DNA of 62,098 nucleotides, the filler included, from Basidiobolus ranarum (lineage: Eukaryota): the NCBI GenBank assembly GCA_040143965.1. It is 25 parts of 25 records of this genome, joined end to end, with 100 filler letters (N's around TTAATTAATTAA, not from the genome) between each part and the next. Parts side by side here need not be neighbours in the genome. Positions count along the whole stretch, not along the records: positions 24,951 to 27,339 come from JASJQH010010267.1; 24 more parts are not named here. One strand, given 5' to 3'. Of the stretch, positions 6,370-59,105 are shown in pieces; position 1 is the first letter of the stretch, and each line of letters starts with the position of its first letter. Position numbers and translations under genes: made by a program. The notes below the pieces were generated by a model. That model saw only the letters and a program-made list of their open reading frames with translations, was not told the origin of the DNA and searched no databases.

Positions 6370-7391
6370 TTTTTCATTTGTGAAATGTTGGGAGGCTTGA
6401 AAATCAATATACTACATCTGAGGATCCTTGTTGGTAGTCATAGATAGAGCAGATATGAACAAGTGATCTTTTGTAGTTACCACATTTCCAGCTTCAGTAT
6501 TTTACCTTTGTTTACAATTCTTTTAAAACAATTGTTGCTTTGATGGCCAGTTCTTTTATAGTAATCACAGAATGTGCTACTTTTCTTCTTAAAGTGCTTT
6601 TGACCTCTATAGGAAGGTTTCCCATAGCCTATTAAAGCATTTTCTTTTTTCTTTTGGTTGGATCCTGATTTGTTTAAATCTTCATCTAGAAGTCTGCCAA
6701 ATACATATTTTAAGGTCAAATTTTCAGTTCTTGATTCTAGAGCCACTACTAGGCTTGGAAACTTGTGTGGCAGGCTATTCATGATTGTAACCATGATATC
6801 TTGATCAGCAGTAGGTACTCCAATGCATTCCATTTCATCCACTAAAATAGTGACTCTGTTAAGTAGTGATTTAATGTCTTCTCCTGGCTTCATCTTTGAG
6901 TTAAAGAATTGTTTTCTTAGAAACATCTTGTTGGCAGCAGAACTTGTTTGGTAGGAGTCTTCCAAGGCTTTCCATACCTTCTGGCAGTTTTAGCTCTTGA
7001 ACATTGAATTATCATTTTGTCTTTAACATTCAGACAAATTGTGTTAAAGGCACTTGGTGGTTTTTTAACCTGGAGTAAAGCTTTGGTTTCAGATAGTTTT
7101 GCATTGTTTTCTTGTCCTACAACAGTGTTCCAGTGTCCTTTTTTTTGCAGCAGCTTTTTCATTTTAATTTTCCAAACTTAATAATTGGTTCCATCAAATT
7201 TTTCAGAAAAGGAAGAAGTTCCATGTATTTGAGAAGTAGACTTTACAGAGAGTGCAAGCTTGGGGCTCACAACTTGTTAAAGTATTTGGGAGCCTGTTGG
7301 AAGTGATTTGGTGAATTAGAGGAATTGATGGTTTTCACGTATTGATTTATTGAGTAGAATGTTAACATATATAGTGTTGTCAAGATAAACG
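6370..7391 (-). mobile_element. Ty1/copia 5' part: LTR B, PBS, gag, start of protease
   Basis: LTR B from 7274, PBS-like AGTTGTGAGCCCC on the minus strand at about 7261-7273, gag ORFs 6477..7162. Same family as 41340-42254. Confidence 0.9.
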
Positions 7392-15420: not shown

Positions 15421-16940
15421 TGTTAAAAAAGAAATCAATGTGGAAACTGTATGGAAACCTGTTCAGAACAAGTTTTACTGAGCCAAAAAGGAAGATCAGC
15501 AATAGAGATTGTTGAAATTAGGCAAACTGTAACTCATTATTTAGTAGTTAGTGCATTCATATAGTGATTATCCAGCACTTCATTGTACCATACAAAAATG
15601 TGTGTTTATTGCACTAACTGATAGAAATATCAAACAGATCACTTTAACCTATTCTCACTATTTTCTGAAAACTTCTCCATATCAGTTCAAACTTCACCAA
15701 CACTTTACAGGTATGTTTTTTGTGAACAATGCATGTCTAATAGTCCTATTTCATGGTAAACAATAAATAAGACACATTCAATTCAATAAAACTTAAGTGT
15801 CAAAGTTACAAATCCAAATCTTGTCCAAAGCACTTCCAAATCCCCTAAACACTTTTATCAGGTTATGAGTGCCAAGCTAGCTATTAGAGGAATGTCTACA
15901 TGAACTATTCCCAATTGTTTTGCATCCACAGAGATGTTTAATGGCAGAGACTTTCACCTTTGGAAGGTCAAGATGCAAATGGTGCTAGAAGACAAGGACC
16001 TTTAAGGATTTTTTGAAGCAGAAGAGATAGAGCCAATGGGACCATCAGAAGCAATCCTTGCCTTTTATAAGAAGCAGAGGAAAGCACTCTCTGCACTTTG
16101 TCTACATCACAGAAACTCTTGATTGGGGCTTATACGTGCAGACAAAAATGTCTGAACTGCTTGGGAAACACTTGATGGACTATATGAGACTAAAATTCTG
16201 GCTAATATGCTATATCTCAGATGAAAATTATTCTCAATTCTTAGGAATTCTGATGCTCTAATGGCTAATCTTTTAAATTTGATAAGAACTAAGGCAGATC
16301 AGCTGTCATCAACTGTAGCACCTCTTGACAAAGATAACTTAGTCATGACATGACTTGGCAGCTTTGCCAGATGAGTATGGGAATCTCATAATTGCCTCAG
16401 AATTTAGATCAGACCAATTAATAATGGTATATGTTGATTCCTGACTTTTAAATGAGGAACCAATGAGCTCTAATTCTCAGCAAAATAATGCAGATCAGGC
16501 ATGTTTTGGAGCTGTAAGACATCCAACAGGCTTCAATAATAGTGCCCCAAGTAGGAAATCAATTATCTGCAAGTGTTGCTAGACAGCAGGCCATTTAATC
16601 AAAGATTGTAGAGAAAATATTTTGCAAAAAAGCTAAAATTGGAAGAATCATATCAAGTAAGGGCTGAGAGGGCCCTTTGATCTGTTGTTGCCCTATCAGC
16701 AACCACCAAAAAAGGCCTAGTAACATGGTACACTGATTCAGGAGCTTCTCACCATATGTCAAACAAGAAAGATTGGCTTTCCAGCTTAAAACTCATCCCA
16801 ACAAGGAAAGTCTACTAAGGTAATGACTATGCACTAGATGCAGTTGGTAAGGGCTCAGTTCTGCTCAGTATTTGATCAAAATTAGGTTTCACCATCTGCA
16901 ACATTGCATGATATACTCTATAAACCAAATATAGCCAAGA
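15421..16940 (+). mobile_element. Ty1/copia 5' part: LTR D (15421-15860), PBS, decayed gag-protease
   Basis: TGTTAA...TTATCA followed by GGTTATGAG PBS, then FNGRDFHLWKVKMQMVLE, CKCC..GH..C and WYTDSGASHHM. Confidence 0.88.
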
Positions 16941-20321: not shown

Positions 20322-20670
20322 TGTTAAAGTATTTGGGAGCCTGTTGGAAGTGGTTTGGAGAATTAGAGAAATTGGTGGTTTTCACTTATTGATTTATTGA
20401 GTAGAAAGTTGACATTTACACTTTTGTCAGGATGTAAACAAACTAACGTGTAGAAAGTGTTAAAAAAGGTTCTAGAAACATGTGCGCAAAGTTTGGGGCT
20501 TCTAGTACAGGTTTGAAAAAATCCATATATCTGAGAACTTATAAGATGGTAAAAATATTCCAAGTAAATTCCTCTTGAGAATAATGGGTAATATCTTTGT
20601 GAAATATAAGATAACTAAATACTAAGCTATATATGGCTATATAGGTGTTTAGGCAATGCTAATTTCAACA
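20322..20670 (-). mobile_element. Complete solo LTR, family B (349 bp), with 5-bp TSD ACAAG
   Basis: TGTTAAAG...TTTCAACA flanked by ACAAG at 20317-20321 and 20671-20675. Strand taken from the PBS-linked copy at 7274. Confidence 0.93.
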
Positions 20671-22115: not shown

Positions 22116-22358
22116 ATGTATCCACCGCATTCAGGAAACCAATATCATCCAAATACTGATCCTTCGGGCTATCCTCAGCAGACCAATCCTGGATACCCAC
22201 CTGAGCAGAGGGGTTACCCTCCTCAGCACAACAATGGTTATCCTCCTCAACAGAGCGCGGGTTATCCCCCTCAACATAACTCTGGTTATCCTCCTCAACA
22301 CAAGGCAGGCTATCCACCTCAACACCATGCAGGTTATCCTCCTCCACCCAATGCAGCT
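22116..22358 (+). CDS. 5' end of a protein with a GYPPQ-repeat low-complexity N-terminus (cut by contig end)
   Basis: Open from ATG to contig end with about 8 GYPPQxxx units whose codons vary synonymously. Confidence 0.7.
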
Positions 22359-22458
22359 NNNNNNNNNNNNNNNNNNNNNNNNNNNNNNNNNNNNNNNNNN
22401 NNTTAATTAATTAANNNNNNNNNNNNNNNNNNNNNNNNNNNNNNNNNNNNNNNNNNNN

Positions 22459-23399
22459 TTCTTCAGAGATTGTCAATACGTCGTATTATTTTAAAATCTC
22501 GCGGTGTACGAAAGCCACATTGGCATGTTAATGGTAACGAACTTGCCTATTGCTTGCGCGGCCAAGTACTTGTTACTATGTTCGAGAACGATAGTTCATT
22601 CAGCAGCTTCACAGTGAACGCCGGGCAGATATTTTATGTACCATCAGGAGCATTGCATCACCTGGAAAATATTGGAACTGAGGAGGTGGAGTTCATTGTT
22701 GCCTTTACTCACGAGAGACCAGAGGATTTTGGTATATCTGGTTCATTCGGGGCCATGACAGATGCAGTACTTGGTAACACTTATGATCTACCTGCAAAAG
22801 CGTTTGAGCCACTTAACCGAACAACGCATGCCACTGTGATTGGTCGTCAAGAGTCAGTTTCATCAATTCCCACTGGAGCACGATGGGGTAATCCTCATAA
22901 ATTCGATATAGAAGCTATGTCAGCGCCAATTTCATCACTTGCAGGGTCAGCCAGGACAGCGTGTAAGAAGTTCTGGCCTATCTTGGATGATATATCGATG
23001 TATTCATTGCAAGTCACTGATGAAGGTATGCGTGAACCTCATTGGCATCCAACCACAGTCGAGATGGGTTACATAGCGAAGGGAAATGCGCGGATGACAG
23101 TTATGAACCCTGGAGGAAGTTTGGTCACCTATTTGCTCAAGCCTGGAGATGTTTATTTTATTCCTCGTGCATACCTACACCATATTGAAAATCTTGGTGA
23201 TCAGTACATCCACTTTCTTATCTTCTTCGACCAGAACACTCCTGGTGACATTGGGTTTAAAGCGTTTATTAGTGGGTATTCACGTGAAACGTTGGCTGCT
23301 GCGTTTGGCACCAATGTTGAGAATTTACCAGAGTTTCCATTCACTCCCATCGATCCATTGTTGGTTGAGAGAGTTAATCCTGTTGACCCAATCGAATAG
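22459..23399 (+). CDS. Bicupin, oxalate decarboxylase (OxdC)-like; 5'-truncated
   Basis: Two cupin domains, each with HWH-x3-E...H (PHWHVNGNE..LHHLEN and REPHWHPTTVE..LHHIEN). No introns in the visible part. Confidence 0.88.
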
Positions 23400-23727: not shown

Positions 23728-23800
23728 GGCTCTGTAGCTCAGTGGATAGAGCGTCCGCCTCCTAAGCGGAAAGTCCCGGGCTCGACCCCCGGTTGGGTTG
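23728..23800 (+). tRNA. tRNA-Arg(CCT), possibly degenerate
   Basis: D arm GCTC/GAGC, anticodon stem TCCGC/GCGGA with loop CT-CCT-AA, T stem CCGGG/CCCGG and T-runs downstream. The acceptor stem is weak and the T loop is CTCGACC. Confidence 0.72.
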
Positions 23801-24850: not shown

Positions 24851-24950
24851 NNNNNNNNNNNNNNNNNNNNNNNNNNNNNNNNNNNNNNNNNNNNTTAATT
24901 AATTAANNNNNNNNNNNNNNNNNNNNNNNNNNNNNNNNNNNNNNNNNNNN

Positions 24951-25340
24951 ACATGGTGTACATTGTTAAGATGTCTCATGAATAGGCCCACACTAGCCCT
25001 ATTGACATTTGCTTGCAAAAACCCAGGATAAGCAGCATGAAATAAGTCAAGAAGCTTCAGAGTAACACCTTGTTTTTGGTTTTTCCGCAATTGGCTCAAA
25101 TCTAGGTGACTTTGGCAAGGATTCCGCATAGTTTCCAAATTGTTAAATCATGCATCATCAGAGCAAGTGATGGCAGCTCTTACATTCAGAGTCTTTTGTT
25201 AAGCCAGCTTTCCCATGAGATTTCTACTTTCAGGTGCTTAAGCAATTTCAGGTTGTTGTGTAGGCTGAAATATCCAATGTATATTCTGCTCTGCTAGATT
25301 GTCATATTGACATTGACATGTATGGTGTGGGATTGATTAT
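24951..25340 (-). mobile_element. CACTA-like element ORF2 fragment
   Basis: LDLSQLRKNQKQGVTLKLLDLFHAAYP matches 36018..36308. Confidence 0.85.
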
Positions 25341-25342
25341 AT

Positions 25343-25912
25343 TGTTAAAAGCCTGGTGACCTGTGGTATGAGCAGTAATTCCCAAAGAGGAAAATATGAA
25401 GTACGGTTACTGCATCTGAACACAAAGTCCAAGGCCAATCAGTTGCTTGTATAGCTGAAATGCCAAAGTTGCATACATTAACAGACTAGGTTAAGATTCC
25501 CTACAACATAGGCATAGCATACAATGACTGGTAGCTCAGTGGTTAGAGCACCTTGGCAGAGTGAAGGAAGTTCCAGGTTCAAATCCTGGCCAGATCAATA
25601 TTTCTCCCTAAATAATTTCAATAGGTTATGAGCCCTGGTTAGTGCTAAATCCTGAAATCCGGCTTGGGGTGGAATGTTAAAAGTCTGGTGACTTGTGGTT
25701 CAAGCAGTAATTCCAAAGGAGGAAAATATTGAGTACAGCAACTGCATCCAAACACAAAGTCTAAGGCCAATCAGTTGCTTGTATAGCTTAAAAGCCAAAG
25801 TACTACACATTGACAGACTAGGTTAGGGTTCCCTACCAATACAGGTATAGCATACATGGACTGGTAGCTCAGTGGTTAGAGGACCTTACTTGAATTAAGG
25901 AGGTCCCAGGTT
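25343..25912 (+). mobile_element. TRIM-like miniature LTR retroelement with tRNA-derived cassette in the LTR
   Basis: LTR1 25343-25623 (281 bp), PBS GGTTATGAGCCCTG at 25624, purine-rich GGGGTGGAA ending 25674, LTR2 from 25675 truncated at about 25912. Confidence 0.85.
25525..25597 (+). ncRNA. tRNA-like Pol III cassette inside the LTR (not a canonical tRNA)
   Basis: A box TAGCTCAGTGG, B box GTTCAAATC and cloverleaf stems. Further copies at 25858-25912 and 52070-52142(-). Confidence 0.8.
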
Positions 25913-29128: not shown

Positions 29129-29827
29129 ATGCTATTCAAAAAGAGTTCAAAAGCCAAGTCAAAATTGGCTTCCAAGCCAAAACATGCTGGCTCAAAAGGA
29201 AAAAAACCAGCAAGAACAGTCGACTTAATTGATGAACAGTCTAGCAATCCACTATCCATTTTGGAAGGCATTAACATGCTGGAAACTAACTCAAGTAATG
29301 GTGAAGCATTAATCAATTTACCAGATGTGTTCCTTTCATGCAATAGTGCAAGTGAATGGATTGTAATCCCCCACATACGTAGTATATCAATAGTTGAGCA
29401 AAGTTCAACCAAAACACTGTCAAGACCATCAACTTCCAAAATGGCTACTTTGCCCACTATTGAACAACCCTCCATAGAAAATTTGGATAGAATTATTACA
29501 ATAAGGGAATCTAAGGCAAAACACCTTAATAATTTGTATGCATTTGTAAATAAAAACTATGAAGTTGCTATACAGGCCATGACAAGCAATAACACCACAA
29601 TATTGCAATTAATGCAGCATTTGGAAGCAACTAGTCAACAGTTAGAGAGTCACTGAACAATGATACAAGACCTTCAGAATGCTGTACTTGAGCTACGGCA
29701 TATTGCTGCTCCCTCCATCCATTCTCTTATGGGATTTCAATCAATTCCACACCATACATATGAACATCACCATGACAATCTAGCAGAGCAGAATATGTGT
29801 TGGACCATTAAGCCTACACAATGACCT
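29129..29827 (+). mobile_element. CACTA-like element ORF2 (unknown protein), 5' part, divergent from the transposase
   Basis: Lys-rich N-terminus, S/T-rich linker and a coiled-coil-like segment. Homologous to 35310-36000 and 46190-46860. Confidence 0.8.
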
Positions 29828-32155: not shown

Positions 32156-32509
32156 TGTTGAAGTTTATTGTCTTTATCATATTTGTTATCTTTATCTTTA
32201 TTCACCTAACTATTTCATATATCACATATAAGTTAGTTAACATTACTTAGTCAAATATCACTTAGCTGAAAATTGGAACATATATTATATATATATGTGA
32301 ATAATGTGAGAATNNNNNNNNNNNNNNNNNNNNNNNNNNNNNNNNNNNNNNNNNNNNTTAATTAATTAANNNNNNNNNNNNNNNNNNNNNNNNNNNNNNN
32401 NNNNNNNNNNNNNTATATTCTGCTCTCCTAGATTGTCATGGTGATGTTCATATGTATGGTGTGGGATTGATCTAAATTCAATATGAGAATGGACAAAGAG
32501 AGCAGCATG

Positions 32510-35197: not shown

Positions 35198-37284
35198 GCA
35201 TCATCAGGGGATTTACAAGATTATTCCAATAATGGATGGCAATTTTGATTTATTATAAGCTTCTTCTGACCAATTTCATTACACTAAGTTTACCATCTGA
35301 TAATTTTATTACCATTCAAAAAGTATTCAAAATCTAAATCAAAATCAGCTTCCAAGCAAAACCCTGTGGGCACAAAAGGAAAAAAACCAGCAAGAACAGA
35401 GGACTTTATTGATGAGCAGTCTAGCAATCCACTATCCACTTTGGAAGGCATTAACATGCTGGAAACCAACTCAAGTAATGATGAAGCATTAATCAATTTA
35501 GCCAATGTATTCCTTTCCAGCAATAGTGCAAGTGGAAAGATTGTAATCCCTAAATTATGTAATTAATCAATAGTTGAGCCAAGTTCAACCAAAACACCAT
35601 CAAGACCATCACCTCCAAAATGGCTACTTTGCCCACTATTGAACAACCCTCCATAAAAATATGGATAGAATTATTATAACAAAGGAATTGCAGGCAGAGC
35701 ACCATAGTGATTTTTATACAATCATAAGTAAGAACTACAAAGTTGCTATACAGGCCATGACCAGCAATAATGCCACAATATTGCAATTAATGCAGCATTG
35801 GGAAGCAACTAGTCAACAGTTAGAGAGTCACTCAGCAATGATACAAGACTGTCAGAATGCTGTACTTGAGCTACAGCAACATACTGCTCCCTCCATTCAT
35901 TCTCATACAGGATTTCAATCAATCCCATACCATACATATGAATGTCACCATGACAATCTGGCAGAGCAGAATATATGTTGGACCATTTAGCCTACACAAT
36001 GACCCAAAATTGCTTGGATGCATGAAAGTAAAAATTTCATAGGAAAACCAGCAAACCAAAAGACTCTGTATGTCAGAGCTGCCATCACTTGCTCTGATGA
36101 TGAGTGGTTTTACATTTTGGAAACTGTGTGGAATCTTGCCCAAAATGACTTCAATTTGAGCCAATTGTGGAAAAACCAAAAACCAGGCGTAACTCTGAAG
36201 GTTCTTGACTTACTTCATGAGGCTTATCCTGTGTTTTGGCAAGCAAATTGCAATTGGGCTAATATAGGCCTACTCATGAAACATCTCAAGTATGTATGCA
36301 GATATTGACTTGGAAAAGAAAGAAAAGCAGGTAAAGAGGAACTCAAGGAGCAGGTAGTCAGTAAGCCCAAGGGAAAAGAAAAAAAACCAGTGAGTTTAGG
36401 CTCTACTGTCCTACTAACCAAATTCTTCACACCATTACAAAGATCTGTATTTCCAGAGTCAGATAAACTGGCAAAAAAGCTTAATTTCACCATGGAACCA
36501 GGTATAACAGTTGGAAGAGTGCTAAATTCAGAAGTTTATCCAACACCTGTCACCTCTCAACAAGCCAAAACACCAGCAGATAAAATGCATGGCTCTCCAA
36601 CCTAAACCATTACTTTTCAAAGTGTTGAAATTAGCCCCAAACTTAAAGGCAAGCAAAGAGCCACACAAATGCTGCAAAGCACCCTTGGTAGTGTCACACT
36701 ACAGCAATGTATAAAAATAGTAAAAGTGCTTGAGAAATATTTTCAAAAGTATGAAGGGAAAAATGCAGTGCAAGTGTGCAGAAAGTGGCTTCAGAAGAAG
36801 AATATTCAACTTGACATTCAGTATGGTGTTTACCATGCAGATACCTAGGAAGAACTTAATACTGAGTGTCATAATTTTGCAGGGCATCCACCAGATAGCT
36901 GGAAGAATGTTAATTCAGCAATGTTATTACAATGATAGGCTTTGATGGAGATATTGATAAAAACTTGTGTTGGATATGAGCTAAACCTTGGGCATGAAGA
37001 ATGATATAAAAATATTCCGGAGAATATATCAAAGAAACTAGGGATTTAGAAGGTGACAAATTAGCATTCAAGTGGTAAATGTGTAAAATTTGAGTTATAT
37101 TTTTTGAACATGTGTTCTCCATAGTTCTCTGAGATTTTAGCCAATCATGTGGAACTATTTTGCCAGATCTTGAAGTTTCACTCCTGAAACTGAAAACATT
37201 GATTAAAATCAAATCTAACTTGACAATTTTATGATGGTAAGTAAATGGTCAATCCAAAATGGATTAAAATTGTGATGGTTTCCC
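35198..37284 (+). mobile_element. CACTA-like element ORF2, near full length (decayed), and right subterminal region
   Basis: Colinear with 29020-29827 and 46080-47220, and with the reverse complement of 13465-14878. Preceded by LTR B (34900-35197). Confidence 0.85.
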
Positions 37285-43691: not shown

Positions 43692-44738
43692 GTCCCAAGG
43701 TCCTTTTTCTTGCAGCAGCATTTTCATTATAACTTACCAAACTTAATAATGGGTTCCATCCAATTTTTCAGAAGAGGGAAAAGTTCTAAAATTTGAGATA
43801 TAGACATTACAGAGAGTGTAAGCTTGGGGCTCACAACCAGTCAAAGTATATGGGAGCCTGTTGGATGTGGTTTGGAGAATTCGAGAAATCAAGCTAACAT
43901 GTAGAATATGTTAAGAAAGGTCCCATGAACATTTGTGCAAAGCTTGGGGCTTCTAGCATAAGTTTGAAAAATCTACATATCTGAGAACTTCTCAGTTGGT
44001 AAAATTAATCCAAGTTGCAATTGAGAATAATTGATAATATCTTGGTGAATTGTAAGATAACCAAGTACTAAGATCTATATGATTGTATAGGTGTTTAGGC
44101 AATCCTTATTTCAACAGTTCCTGGGACCTTCCTTAGCACATTCAACAGGTTAGTTTGCTTACATCTTGACAGAACTATAAATGTCAACTTTCACTCATTA
44201 AGTCAACAAGTGAAAGCCACCAATTTCTCTAATTCTCCAAACCACTTCCAACAGGCTCCCAAGTACTTTAAAAGTAACATCTGTATTTTATAGCCATGAA
44301 ATGGAAGTTACAAAACAGGTTCAATATTTACTCAAAAATATGTTTCAAACTAACTTTCAATTATTAGGTGTGATCAGAAGTACAAATATAAACTAAACAA
44401 TAGATGTAACACAATTATCAAATCTGGTAAACTTAAATATGGGATATGCTAATTCCAGGAAATTAATTTGAATATTCAATAGTTTGATAGTAGTAAAAAT
44501 AGGAATAGATTTAACTTGTTTATACTCATTAAACTTCAGAATATCAAATGATTTACCAATTCTTGTTGAAATTAGCATTGCCTAAACACCTAAATAGTCA
44601 TATATAACTTAGTAATTAGTTATCTTATAATTCACTAAGATATTATCAATTATTCTCAATTGGAATTTACTTAGAATATTTTTACCAACTTAGAAGTTCT
44701 CAGATATATAGATTTCTCAAACTTGTGCTAGAAGCCCC
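43692..44738. mobile_element. Cluster of LTR B fragments and a gag 5' remnant with PBS
   Basis: Matches to 20322-20670 in both orientations. GGGGCTCACAACC at about 43826. Confidence 0.8.
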
Positions 44739-44838: not shown

Positions 44839-47220
44839 TAGATAACCATTCAAATTCCTCAATCAAAGGCTCCAAGAAGCTATCTATAAGCACTGGTGAT
44901 TTAGGTCCAGATATGATGGATAGTATCAAAATATTTTGACTCTTATACCATCCAGAAGGAGCAAGATTCAAGCTGATTAAGATTATTGACCAGCAAGCCT
45001 TTCCAATGGTATATTTGTTTAGTGAGAAACCATCCAGAGCCAATGCATGCTCATACATGTTCTCAAAGAAACCTTGACTTTTCAGATTCTGGTAGTGATA
45101 TCCAACAAGTAAACTGGTAATACCATCAAATTCATGGTGAGTACTATGGTATTGGATCGATGTTCTATATTTGGATGATTTCATCAAAACTTTAAGATGG
45201 GGAATCAACAGTTTGTAAGCCAAATGTGAACAATATGTATGTAATTTAGTGATTGTCAATTGTGTGCAAACTGTTCATGACTTCAGGTTTTTCAGATCAC
45301 TGGTGAAAGCCAAACAACTATTTAGATATCAAGGAAGTTTAATTACTGAAAATTATAAGTCATACAATAGACAGGTGTTTTCCGCTTGTATCAGGTCTGT
45401 GGCAAGCAACAGTTGCCAATCAACTGTGGTAAAAGTGTAAGAAAACCAATAAATACCTGGTTGCTAAGAGGGCATTGAACTCTCCACTCCTCAATAATCA
45501 AAGCTGCTTCCTTCATGGTAAGTGTCATGAGGGGACTAATGTTGGCCAATAACAAAGAGTCTGTAACAAAAACATTGTCTTCTTCAACTTCTGATATACT
45601 ACCATTGGTACTAGAATAACCAAGGTCAGCATCTAGCAGCAAGTCTTCAAAGTTGTCTGGACTTACTTGTTTGATCAAAGTTGCATTTTGACCTACATCA
45701 TTCTGGTCATATAACTGTGGTAACTCCATGGTATCTTGAATTTTGGCAGTGTTACCAAAACTTTGTGGCAAACTACAGTCCATGGACTCAATGGCAAAAC
45801 TAGAGTTGATTTAGCACACTTTTTACTGTTGTTATACACCAGGCTTGGTGCAGCTGGTGGCTTTGTACAGTGTCTGTGCCTGTGATTATTTTTTTTATGA
45901 AGCCTCTAGCTTTCATAGCACAAGAATTTGTGACAATAATAGCAGGGCTTGTTTAAATGTTTGTGTAGTGGCATGAGAAGGTTATTGTGGAAAAAAGAAC
46001 ACCTCCTATATAAGAATGGTATCTTAGGTATAGCCCGGCAATATCATCAGCTGATTCTGAGACAGTGTCACAGAAGAGTCAACAGGGGATATACAAGATA
46101 TTTCTGGTGATGGATGGCAGCTTTAGATTATTAAAAGCTGTTTCTAAGCAATTTCACTACACCAAGTTTACCATGTGGAAATTTCAATGCCATTCAAAAA
46201 GCATTCTAAATCTAAATCAAAATCTGCTTCCATGCCAAAGCCTTCTGGCCCAAAGGAAACAAACCGGAGAGAACAGAGGACTTGGTTGATGAGCAGTCTA
46301 GCAATCTACCATCCGCTTTGGAAGGTATAAACATGCCGGAAACTAACTCCAGTAATGATGAAGCATTAATTAATTTACCAGATGTGCTCCTTTCCGGCAA
46401 TTGTGCAAGTGAAGAGATTGTAATCCCCAAATTATGTAGTAAATCAATAGTTGAGCAAAGTTCAACCAAAACACCATCAAGACCATCAACTTCCAAAATG
46501 GCTACTTTGCCCACTCTTGAACAACCCTCTGTAGAAAATTTGGATGGAATTATTACAACTAGGGAATTGCAGGCAGAACACCATAATGATTTGTATGCAA
46601 TCATAAGTAAAAACTACAAAGTTGCTATACAGGCCATGAGAAGCAATAACACTGCAATATTGCAATTAATGTAGAGTTTGGAAGCAACTAGTCAACAGTT
46701 TGAGAGTCATTCAACAATGATACAAGACTTTTGAATGCTGAACTTGAGCTACAGCAATGTGCTGCTTCCTCTGTCCATTTTCATATGGGATTTCAATCAA
46801 TCCCACACAATACATATTAACATCACCACAACAATCTAGCAGAGCAGAAAATGTGTCAGACCATTAAGCCTACACAACAACCCAGAATTACTTGGGCACA
46901 TGAAAGTGGAAATCTCATAGGAAAACTGGCAAACCAAAACACTCTAAATCTCAAAGCTGCCATCACTTGCTATGATGATGAGTAGTTTAACATTTTGGAA
47001 ACTGTGAGCAATCTTACTCAAAATCACCTGGATTTGAGCCAATTGTGGAAAAACCAAAAACCAGGCATTACTCTGAAGGTTCTTGACTTATTTCATGTGA
47101 CTTATCCTAGGTTTTTGCAAGCAAATGGCAATTGGGCTAGTATAGGCCTATTCATGAAACATCTCAAAAATGTATGCAATTATTGACTTGGAAAAGAAAG
47201 AAAAGCAGCTAAAGAAGTAC
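44839..47220. mobile_element. CACTA-like element central region: transposase 5' half (-) and ORF2 (+)
   Basis: ALALDGFSLN..CWSIILISLNLAPS..ISGPKSPVLIDSFLEPLIEEF. Same divergent layout as 27440-29827. Confidence 0.9.
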
Positions 47221-52043: not shown

Positions 52044-52183
52044 TGTTGAAATTATTTAAGGAGAAATATTGGTCTGGCCAGGATTTGAACCTGGGACCTC
52101 CTTCACTCTAGCAACGTGCTCTAACCACTGAGCTACCAGTCCTTGTATGCTATGCCTATATTGCTAGGGAACCTTAACCTAGT
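52044..52183 (-). mobile_element. Third copy of the tRNA-bearing LTR (3' half), inserted in copia RNase H
   Basis: Reverse complement matches 25485-25623 and ends in canonical ...TTTCAACA. Confidence 0.88.
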
Positions 52184-57242: not shown

Positions 57243-59105
57243 ACATGACTTCAGGTTTTTCAGATCACCGGTGAAAGCCAAACAACCATTTGGACATGAA
57301 GGAAGTTTAATTACTGAAGGATTATCAGTCATATGATTGACAAGTGTTTTCCACTTGTACCAGGTCTGTGGCAAGCAACAGTTGCTAATCAACTGTGATA
57401 AAAGTGTAAGAAAACCAATAAACACCTGGTTGCTAAGATTGGATAGAACTTGCCACTCCTCAATAATCAAAGCTGCTTCCTTCACTGTAAGAGTTATGTG
57501 TGGACTAATGCTTGCTGGTAACAAAGAGTCCACAACAAAACCATCTTCTTCTTCTTCAACTTTTGATATATTACTATTAATACTATTAAGAACCAAGGTC
57601 AACATCTTGCAACACAGCCTGAAGGTTTTCTGGACTCACTGGTTCAACCAAAGTTGAATTTCTACCTGTATCACTTGGGTCATATAACTGGGCTAGCTCC
57701 ACCATATCTTGACTTTCAGATATGTTACAAAAACTTTGAGGCAAAGCTCAGCCAGTGGAGTCAGTGGGCAAAAGTAAACTTAATTTTGTGCACTTATAAG
57801 TGTTTATTTTGATAAAAGTGTTTAGGGTATTTTGAAGTGTTTTAAACAAGATCTAGATTGGGGAATTATATACTGAGGTTGTCATCAATTAAAAATGTCT
57901 TATTTTTGGTTTACTATGAAACAAGACTATTGGACATGCTTAGATCATAACAAACCTGCCTGTTAAGCATGGGTGAAGATTTGGGGTGTTTTGGAGTAGA
58001 TTTGAGAAAACAGTCAAAATTCATAAAAGTGATCTAATTACCATTTCTATCAATTAAAGCAATAAAGTCATGCTTTTGAATTGAAGAACTCAGTGCTAAT
58101 TAATCAGAATATGAATAAGTTTACTACCAAATAATGGGTGGCTATTTACCTAACTTCAACATTCCCACTTAACCAATTATTTTGCATTTCTCTTAAACCC
58201 AATTTATCCCATAATAATTCAAATTGTGCTTTAGCTAAAGGTTTGATTAAGATGTCAGCAATTGTGTCTTCAGTTGGGAAATAGAAATTACATTATATCA
58301 CATGTTATGCTCTGCTAGATTGGCAAAATAATATTTATATGTGTGGTGTGGGATTGAATGAAATCAAGTATGAGAAAGGATGGATGAGGCTGCATGGTGC
58401 TGTAGCTCAAGTACAGCATTCCAATGGTCATCTAGCATTGTTGAGTGCCTCTCCAACTGATGCCTAGTTTCTTCACAATGCTGCATCAATTCCTATATTG
58501 CTCTGTTATTTCTTTTCATAGCCTACATTACAACTTTATTGTTTTTTCCTATTGTCTCAGACAAATTGTTACTGTGTTCTGGCTGAGATTCACTTGTAGT
58601 TATTTGATCCAAGTTGTTCAGGACAAGATATGCATTAGTTTGATGTATCAGGCATTATGGAAGTTAATGATCTTGATAATGCTTTGCTTGAACTATGGTC
58701 ATTTATTGATTTACTATATAATGGGGGATGATAATATCTTCACTTGCACTGTGGCTACAATGCACTATGTCTGTAAAAGCAAGTACTCCTTCTTCTTTAC
58801 TTGAGTTAGTTTGTAGCATTGAAATTCCTTTGAAAGTGAAAAATGGACTGTTAGACTGCATGTCAAATAAGTCTTCTGTTCTTGTTGGTTTGCTTTCCTT
58901 TCCTACTAGCAAGTTTTGGCTTGGAACCCATTTTTGACTTAGATGAGGATATTTTTTCAATAGCATTCAAATAATAGATGGCAAACTTGGTGTAATGAAA
59001 TTGCTCACAAGTTTCTTGAGATAAGCTAAAGTTGCCATACATTACTAAAAATATCTTATAAATCCCCTGACAAATCATCTGTGACACTATCTCAAAATCA
59101 GCTGT
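57243..59105 (-). mobile_element. CACTA-like transposase fragment (57243-57800), LTR D-like/RNase H remnant (about 57810-58290), diverged ORF2 (58300-59105)
   Basis: PSVIKLPSCPNGCLAF, minus-strand IADILIKPL and similarity to 15421-15860 and 29000-29800. Confidence 0.8.

Follow-up and report, generated by a model that had tools for sequence, protein, structure and literature searches.

We have found, at positions 25343-25912 of a 62,098-base stretch of DNA (the window), what is very probably a Helenus-type TRIM, a member of the 'TRIMp3' class (Kojima 2024, PMC10886601), in an old and damaged copy. The evidence supports a non-coding miniature LTR retroelement carrying a tRNA-derived module with A and B boxes in its LTR.

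[quoted passage not shown] We count the element as Helenus because every structural feature of that group that could be tested was found here. Two direct LTRs (281 bp, and 238 bp left of the other) enclose a short internal part of 51 bp; tRNA-derived A and B boxes lie in the LTR (covariance-model scores of 42.7 and 50.3 bits; boxes in copies 1 and 3); the PBS GGTTATGAGCCC is located directly 3′ of the 5′ LTR (25624-25635), and the PPT GGCTTGGGGTGGAA directly 5′ of the 3′ LTR (25661-25674). The original prediction had named Helenus as a known analogue of an element possibly undescribed in this lineage. The likeness stands; the element, however, belongs inside Helenus as a member and is not a mere analogue, and its kind was already described in 2024.

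The window is made of 25 separate ∼2.4-kb contigs, arranged by length, with N/TTAATTAATTAA linkers between them. The element is situated in the contig at 24951-27339, and a third LTR copy was found at the edge of the contig at 49803-52183, so the copies do come from two contigs, as had been claimed; since the contigs are separate and artificially joined, the distance between the two loci carries no meaning. The G+C content of the window is ∼35%. Outside the element, a Ras-type GTPase ORF has its nearest Atlas cluster labelled mainly Basidiomycota, a gag ORF has its nearest Atlas clusters labelled Streptophyta, and a methionine synthase fragment matches the fungal PDB entries 3ppf, 3ppc and 4ztx with 670-675 bits and the plant entry 1u1h with 552 bits. 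From these matches the host was judged to be a fungus, probably a basidiomycete, the gag clusters notwithstanding; the PBS type, the Copia load and the G+C content raise the suspicion of a rust fungus.

Structure and boundaries of the element

A repeat search revealed a direct repeat with units at 25343-25579 and 25675-25912. With the edges set by paralogues of the flanking DNA and by the third copy, the 5′ LTR (LTR1, copy 1) occupies 25343..25623 (+) and has the predicted length of 281 bp (TGTTAAAA...TTTCAATA). The 3′ LTR (LTR2, copy 2), delimited by the direct repeat and BLAST, occupies 25675..25912 (+), has 238 bp and is truncated in the B box. BLAST aligned the two LTRs at 83.6% identity over 238 bp (E-value 1.7e-68); by direct count 199 of 237 aligned positions are identical and 38 differ (24 transitions and 14 transversions), with one gap in addition. 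The third copy (copy 3), identified by BLAST at 52044..52183 (−), is 92.0% identical over 138 bp (E-value 3.3e-52); it is partial, with its 5′ side cut by the contig end, and it terminates in TTTCAACA, the canonical end that had been claimed for it. Judged by the position of the tRNA-like module, the part of LTR1 that is 5′ of the module start (25343..25525, +) is the putative U3, and the LTR trailer at 25599..25623 (+), which has a T3 run only (ATATTTCTCC), would be the end of U5.

The 51-bp internal part between the LTRs (25624..25674, +) has no coding capacity and consists of the PBS and the PPT with ∼23 bp separating them, in accordance with the predicted order of a PBS followed by internal DNA ending in a purine tract. 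The 14-nt PBS (GGTTATGAGCCCTG, 25624..25637, +) follows the LTR without a gap, and its 12-mer GGTTATGAGCCC has its single exact occurrence in the window at this very place. The PPT (25661..25674, +) abuts the 3′ LTR; 10 of its 14 bases, and eight of the last nine, are purines. The LTR-internal-LTR arrangement was seen in one copy (n = 1), the total being three LTR copies at two loci in ∼60 kb of contigs. If intact, the element would be 613 bp long. The second LTR does begin at 25675, as predicted, but the complete ∼610-bp copy does not exist here: the sequence breaks off within the B box at 25912, and the 3′ LTR is without its last ∼43 bp.

Both LTR ends are genuine ends, confirmed independently of the repeat. 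The target DNA at 24959..25342 (+) is an unrelated dispersed repeat (380 bp of it at 24959-25338) with paralogues in the window: 82%-identical copies at 46795-47174 (−) and 35917-36296 (−), and three shorter pieces. Past ...GGGATTGATT all five paralogues read on into GAAATCC..., and the element start TGTTAAAAG (TGTT) stands there instead; the 5′ end of the element is thus an insertion boundary. On the other side, copy 3 breaks a Copia RNase H frame (...ISWNSKKQPTIALSTTEAEYMADCG; ...STTEAEYMADCG/) exactly where TTTCAACA ends, and the 3′ edge of LTR1 agrees with the end of copy 3. The sequence 3′ of 25912 has no resemblance to the LTR or to the upstream repeat; downstream of the element there is a decayed Copia pol on the opposite strand.

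In the stretch shared by all three copies, copy 3 is identical to the two LTRs at 87/95 and 85/96 positions, and LTR1 to LTR2 at 79/95. Copy 3 is therefore nearer to each LTR than the LTRs are to one another, which is consistent with an old insertion whose LTRs drifted from a copy-3-like consensus. The copy at 25343-25912 is dead. Given a fragmented assembly, a repeat-rich genome and LTRs that are 84% identical, there may also be some chimerism at the locus.

The tRNA-like module in the LTR

The tRNA-like module of LTR1 (25526..25598, +) is 73 nt long and was detected by the Rfam tRNA model RF00005 (25526-25597; 42.7 bits, E-value 3.8e-07) and by a box scan, which located the A box TAGCTCAGTGG at 25532-25542 (+) and the B box GGTTCAAATCC at 25576-25586 (+). 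The module of copy 3 (52070-52142, −) scores 50.3 bits with the same model. Two of the three LTR copies thus pass the RF00005 gathering score of 29; the LTR2 module, with 25.9 bits, is under the threshold. Only two places in the window, both within the element (LTR1 and copy 3), showed A and B boxes spaced as in a tRNA, so that the claim of a tRNA-like module with intact boxes in the LTR is borne out.

In LTR2 only the A box and one half of the T arm survive; its B box was lost by truncation. The statement that the three copies keep the D and T arms accordingly holds in one part and fails in the other: all three share a 23-nt D-arm/A-box stretch without a single difference, and the T arm is kept in two, LTR2 being cut inside the B box. 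Against this identical stretch the anticodon loops diverge just as described (GCAGAGT in LTR1, CTTGAAT in LTR2 and CTAGAGT in copy 3), and in the anticodon stem-loop of LTR2, CCTTA-CTTGAAT-TAAGG, the stem is compensated. At minimum energy the LTR1 module folds into a cloverleaf whose acceptor stem is bulged. In folding energy the cloverleaves were not set apart from shuffled sequences (z-scores −1.45, −0.64 and −0.28), and it is the covariance-model scores, not the folding energy, that argue for a cloverleaf.

ARAGORN called copy 3 as tRNA-Ser(AGA) and did not call copies 1 and 2 as tRNA. Copies of Helenus-type elements can be miscalled as tRNA genes in this way, inflating tRNA counts; such inflation by Helenus is documented for Puccinia and Cronartium (PMC10886601).

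Related modules in metagenomes

A search with the 23-mer produced six loci in metagenomes (L001-L006), none of them of the same family as the element, and no loci in the prokaryote genome collection; a search of JGI metagenomes with a two-part tRNA-like pattern gave no loci. Five of the six loci have a tRNA-like part 80-82% identical to that of the element over 57-79 nt, with an ARAGORN call of Ser(AGA). The repeats that bear these modules start with TGTTGG and are 162 bp long in L001, L002 and L004 and 190 bp long in L005 and L006. A 5-bp target site duplication (TSD) was seen at L001 (GCTTG) and at L005/L006 (CTTGG; one locus in two records), and none at L002. In these five the remaining LTR is unrelated to that of the element and no internal part is visible. 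The five soil metagenome loci have the appearance of solo LTRs from further Helenus-like families of soil eukaryotes. The sixth locus, L003, has only 24 nt in common with the element and is located beside ordinary tRNA genes.

Copia elements as candidate helpers

Copia gag, pre-integrase or pol domains were detected in six of the 21 long ORFs in the window, and a Copia LTR family of ∼350 bp (TGTTGAAATTAG...CTTTAACA) is represented by about ten fragments. The candidate helper type is exemplified by a Copia 5′ LTR (TGTTGAAATTAG...TTTTATCA) followed by the PBS GGTTATGAGTGCC and a gag start at 15510..15873 (+). At 7263..7391 (−) there is a second Copia LTR end (...CTTTAACA) together with the PBS AGTTGTGAGCCCC, followed by a gag ORF, and at 20322..20670 (−) a 349-bp solo LTR of the same family with a 5-bp TSD, CTTGT. 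Three LTR/leader junctions were found, ...TTTTATCA/GGTTATGAGTGCC at 15860/61 (+), ...CTTTAACA/AGTTGTGAGCCCC at 7275/74 (−) and .../GGTTGTGAGCCCC at 43839/38 (−), and all three share the PBS class of the element. The LTR tips are TGTTGAAATTAG and CTTTAACA in Copia versus TGTTAAAAG and ATTTCAACA in the element.

When the LTR end plus PBS of the element was aligned with Copia pieces, the score was 34 for the piece at 15510..15873 (shuffle maximum 29 in 200 shuffles) and 30 for the piece at 7263..7391 (−) (shuffle maximum 29). The other two of the four alignments did not exceed the shuffles, one scoring 25 (shuffle maximum 29) and that of the solo LTR, which is without a PBS, 18 (shuffle maximum 24). 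LTR end and PBS are in register with the element in three of the four pieces (scores 34, 30 and 25). Beyond the terminal ∼30-65 nt the element LTR and the Copia LTRs have nothing in common (best BLAST E-value 0.1); unrelated LTRs are what is expected when the TRIM is driven by Pol III and its helper by Pol II (PMC10886601). None of the window's Copia LTRs has a purine tract ahead of its start, hence there is no Copia 3′ LTR/PPT junction for comparison.

The window has no match to TGGTAGCRAGAG, the 3′-end type of initiator-tRNA PBS, and no initiator tRNA gene. The reverse complement of the PBS 12-mer has CAT centred in a seven-base loop with GGG/CC(C) flanks. Such a CAT-centred loop with these flanks suits the anticodon arms of initiator tRNAs. 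Half-tRNA-type priming of this sort is known for copia and Ty5.

The Copia elements of the window are plausible candidate helpers, and mobilization of the element by Copia is supported indirectly. The element and a Copia with matching PBS and LTR tips in one sample make a candidate helper pair; helpers are mostly unknown for the Helenus/TRIMp3 class (PMC10886601).

Transcription, proposed life cycle and alternative explanations

In the 570 bp of the element, runs of at least four Ts are absent from the sense strand and number five on the antisense strand. This T-run avoidance is weak evidence, because 4.5% of background strand-windows and 672 of 5000 shuffles of the element (13%) are also without T4+ runs. 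After the tRNA-like part there is no T4+ terminator. On the premise that the element is a Helenus, we lean towards Pol III being its working promoter, a view suggested by the preserved boxes.

In the life cycle that we propose, the A and B boxes would recruit RNA polymerase III; transcription would begin near 25526 in the 5′ LTR and continue past the weak T3 stretch, over the PBS and the 51-bp internal part, and across the U3 of the 3′ LTR. The RNA would be packaged by Gag/Pol of Copia elements of the same genome. The primer of the minus strand at GGTTATGAGCCC would be an initiator tRNA-Met fragment that pairs by way of its anticodon stem-loop, a mode that follows from the assignment in PMC10886601 together with what is known for copia and Ty5. 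The plus strand would start from the purine tract, and Copia integrase would insert the product with a 5-bp duplication of the kind seen here for the Copia family. The present copy was inserted into another dispersed repeat; its LTRs later diverged by ∼16%, and the last ∼43 bp of the 3′ LTR were lost.

An LTR-51 bp-LTR structure is topologically equal to 1.7 copies of a 332-bp repeat, and the assembly comes in ∼2.4-kb contigs, which leaves room for the idea that the locus holds no LTR element, being instead 1.7 units of a tandem duplication, a tRNA-SINE dimer or an assembly chimera. We find this idea scarcely credible. Tandem Repeats Finder detected no array at the element, the homology already starts 183 bp before the tRNA-like part instead of at its 5′ end, the TG...CA termini of the unit fall on the same bases at an independent locus, and a retroviral-type PBS and a purine tract are positioned exactly at the two junctions; with real insertion ends, no array and a start 183 bp before the module, the tandem-duplication and SINE-dimer readings were rejected. 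It is very improbable, too, that an autonomous Copia element, with the 281-bp sequence as its usual LTR, underwent a single internal deletion here, in which case the family would be no TRIM. That a single copy has a visible internal part, and that Copia elements of the same PBS class abound in the window, would be in keeping with such a deletion; yet the ∼10 Copia LTR fragments nowhere match the element LTR past its terminal nucleotides, the 51 bp amount to PBS, ∼23 bp and PPT as in published Helenus (PMC10886601), and a Pol III promoter is, as argued in the same paper, unsuited to a 5-kb coding element.

The remaining alternative accepts the TRIM and differs as to its promoter: transcription would be by Pol II from U3, as in ordinary TRIMs, and the tRNA-like part would be a passenger relic of an old SINE/tRNA insertion with no promoter role. 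The lack of a T4+ terminator after that part speaks for this, as does the fact that the Pol III promoter of Helenus is itself described as unvalidated (PMC10886601). We nevertheless consider it unlikely, since all three copies have the same A-box/D-arm stretch and both untruncated ones an intact B box, whereas the anticodon loop and U3 vary; moreover, a ∼80%-identical module resides inside unrelated LTRs of soil metagenome contigs, and the sense strand has no T4+ runs. A Helenus-type TRIM with Pol III as its likelier promoter is the reading retained below.

Comparison with known systems

The plant TRIM Cassandra resembles the element in that its LTR holds a Pol III-type small-RNA gene; in Cassandra this is 5S rRNA, whereas in the element it is tRNA-like, and the two are separate lineages (both points according to PMC10886601). 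Rfam gave no 5S rRNA match in the element's contig (E-values up to 1) or in the window (gathering thresholds). Membership in Cassandra or Ajax, a 5S-bearing TRIM, was rejected, the Rfam matches in the element being to tRNA only. Like the element, SINE2 units are short and have a tRNA-derived head with A and B boxes; they start, however, at the tRNA-like 5′ end and have a LINE-type tail (A-rich or simple-repeat), whereas the element starts 183 bp upstream and ends in CA. A tRNA-derived SINE was rejected as well, on the grounds that the repeat starts 183 bp before the module and ends in TTTCAACA, with PBS and PPT at the junctions. The origin proposed for Helenus is a SINE2 insertion into a TRIM LTR (PMC10886601).

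Helenus TRIMs have been known since 2024 and abound above all in rust fungi (PMC10886601), so the element brings little new biology. The fungal Helenus reported in that paper comprise 113 families from Pucciniales and a few from Agaricomycetes. The family itself is another matter. None of seven motifs 9-20 nt long (one from the start of the LTR, two from the start of the internal part with 13 and 15 nt, one from U3 and three from the tRNA-like part) had a match in the Helenus supplement of PMC10886601, where families are clustered at ≥75% identity over ≥75% of the length and line breaks can hide motifs; two shorter generic tRNA motifs matched other Helenus families there. No record of the same family was seen by eye among the fungal Helenus records through Helenus-1_CCin (PMC10886601). 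The match to a described element, which the original prediction had treated as a possible refutation, thus extends to the kind, Helenus, and not to a named family, as far as the motif search and inspection of that portion of the supplement go. Judged by short motifs and by eye rather than by computed alignment, the element probably represents a new Helenus family.

A wider reading can be put forward only tentatively: an undescribed Helenus family from a host new to the Helenus list, with a compact, insert-free module, with related modules ∼80% identical in unrelated LTRs, and with a Copia helper that can be named from the LTR tip, the U5 end and the half-tRNA PBS common to both. If true, the pair would be among few concrete TRIMp3-helper pairs, and the modules would hint at a Pol III module exchanged or conserved across Helenus lineages.

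It is with the fungal Helenus that the element has most to be compared (all of the following from PMC10886601). Their trailer, by eye, is usually CTTTTC, and that of the element has T3; their internal parts end in gggggaa, ggggggg or gggggtg, and that of the element in GGCTTGGGGTGGAA. The nearest T arm plus trailer, again by eye, is that of Helenus-4_PGr, Helenus-4_PSt, Helenus-12_PHor, Helenus-2_MLP, Helenus-4/14/16_CroRib and Helenus-5_UTr, families that have a longer insert after the anticodon region, in contrast to the compact 73-nt module of the element. Fungal and plant Helenus families have 5-bp TSDs. The commonest internal start among fungal Helenus is ggttatgagccc, with the 12-mer occurring 48 times in the supplement sequence file, and internal parts down to 51 bp (Helenus-1_CCin, fungal) and 43 bp (fish families) are recorded (Table S1). 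Like the element, fungal Helenus have LTRs that start with TGTT and end in ACA/ATA, with the tRNA-like part close to the 3′ end of the LTR; like the element, too, they have the PBS GGTTATGAGCCC and a G-rich 3′ end of the internal part, are non-coding and ∼0.6 kb long, and have Copia-type companions.

Insertion site and surroundings

The element, a Helenus-type TRIM copy (25343-25912), lies in an interspersed sequence that was itself repeated: the unclassified dispersed repeat at 24959-25338 is the target that received its insertion. Further copies of this repeat are found at 35917-36296(-) and 46795-47174(-), with ∼82% identity among the three, and pieces of it occur at 29739-29827, 32414-32471 and 58302-58357. 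The window consists of 25 contigs of 2378-2398 bp each, ordered by length and not forming a single locus, and the contig joints are N runs flanking TTAATTAATTAA (e.g. linker 24851-24950); spacing and neighbourhood across linkers carry no meaning.

Copia LTR copies stand head to head within one contig, at 43887-44116(-) and 44163-44275 / 44564-44738(+), making a long inverted repeat, and a further Copia PBS/leader is located at 43692-43889(-). This arrangement looks like nested or rearranged insertions. An ORF piece at 44840-45274(-) matches Transposase_21 (E 2.5e-08), the tnp2/CACTA type of DNA transposon.

Among other genes, a bicupin ORF (22166-23399(+)) is preceded by six 24-bp repeats coding for GYPPQQ-like units and is adjoined by an apparently ordinary tRNA-Arg(CCT) gene (23728-23800(+), 52 bits). 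The contig at 59983-62098(-), with a higher G+C content (48%), carries most of a cobalamin-independent methionine synthase in two frames, a split for which an intron or a frameshift may be responsible.

The tRNA-like module and its relatives

In the truncated LTR (the 3′ LTR, cut inside the B box) both sides of the anticodon stem, within 25858-25912, are altered, from CCTTG...GAAGG to CCTTA...TAAGG, so that pairing is retained or improved; with three LTR copies, this two-sided change cannot be told apart from chance. The anticodon of this LTR is TGA, not AGA.

Among the metagenome matches to the 23-nt D-arm/A-box stretch of the element, soil metagenome contigs hold short TGTTGG...ATA/ACA repeats bearing a tRNA-Ser(AGA)-like module and accompanied by 5-bp TSDs; the unit is 162 bp long in L001 and 190 bp in L005 and L006. 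These repeats probably represent solo LTRs that belong to other Helenus-like families, TRIMs with tRNA-derived sequence in their LTRs, in eukaryotic hosts.
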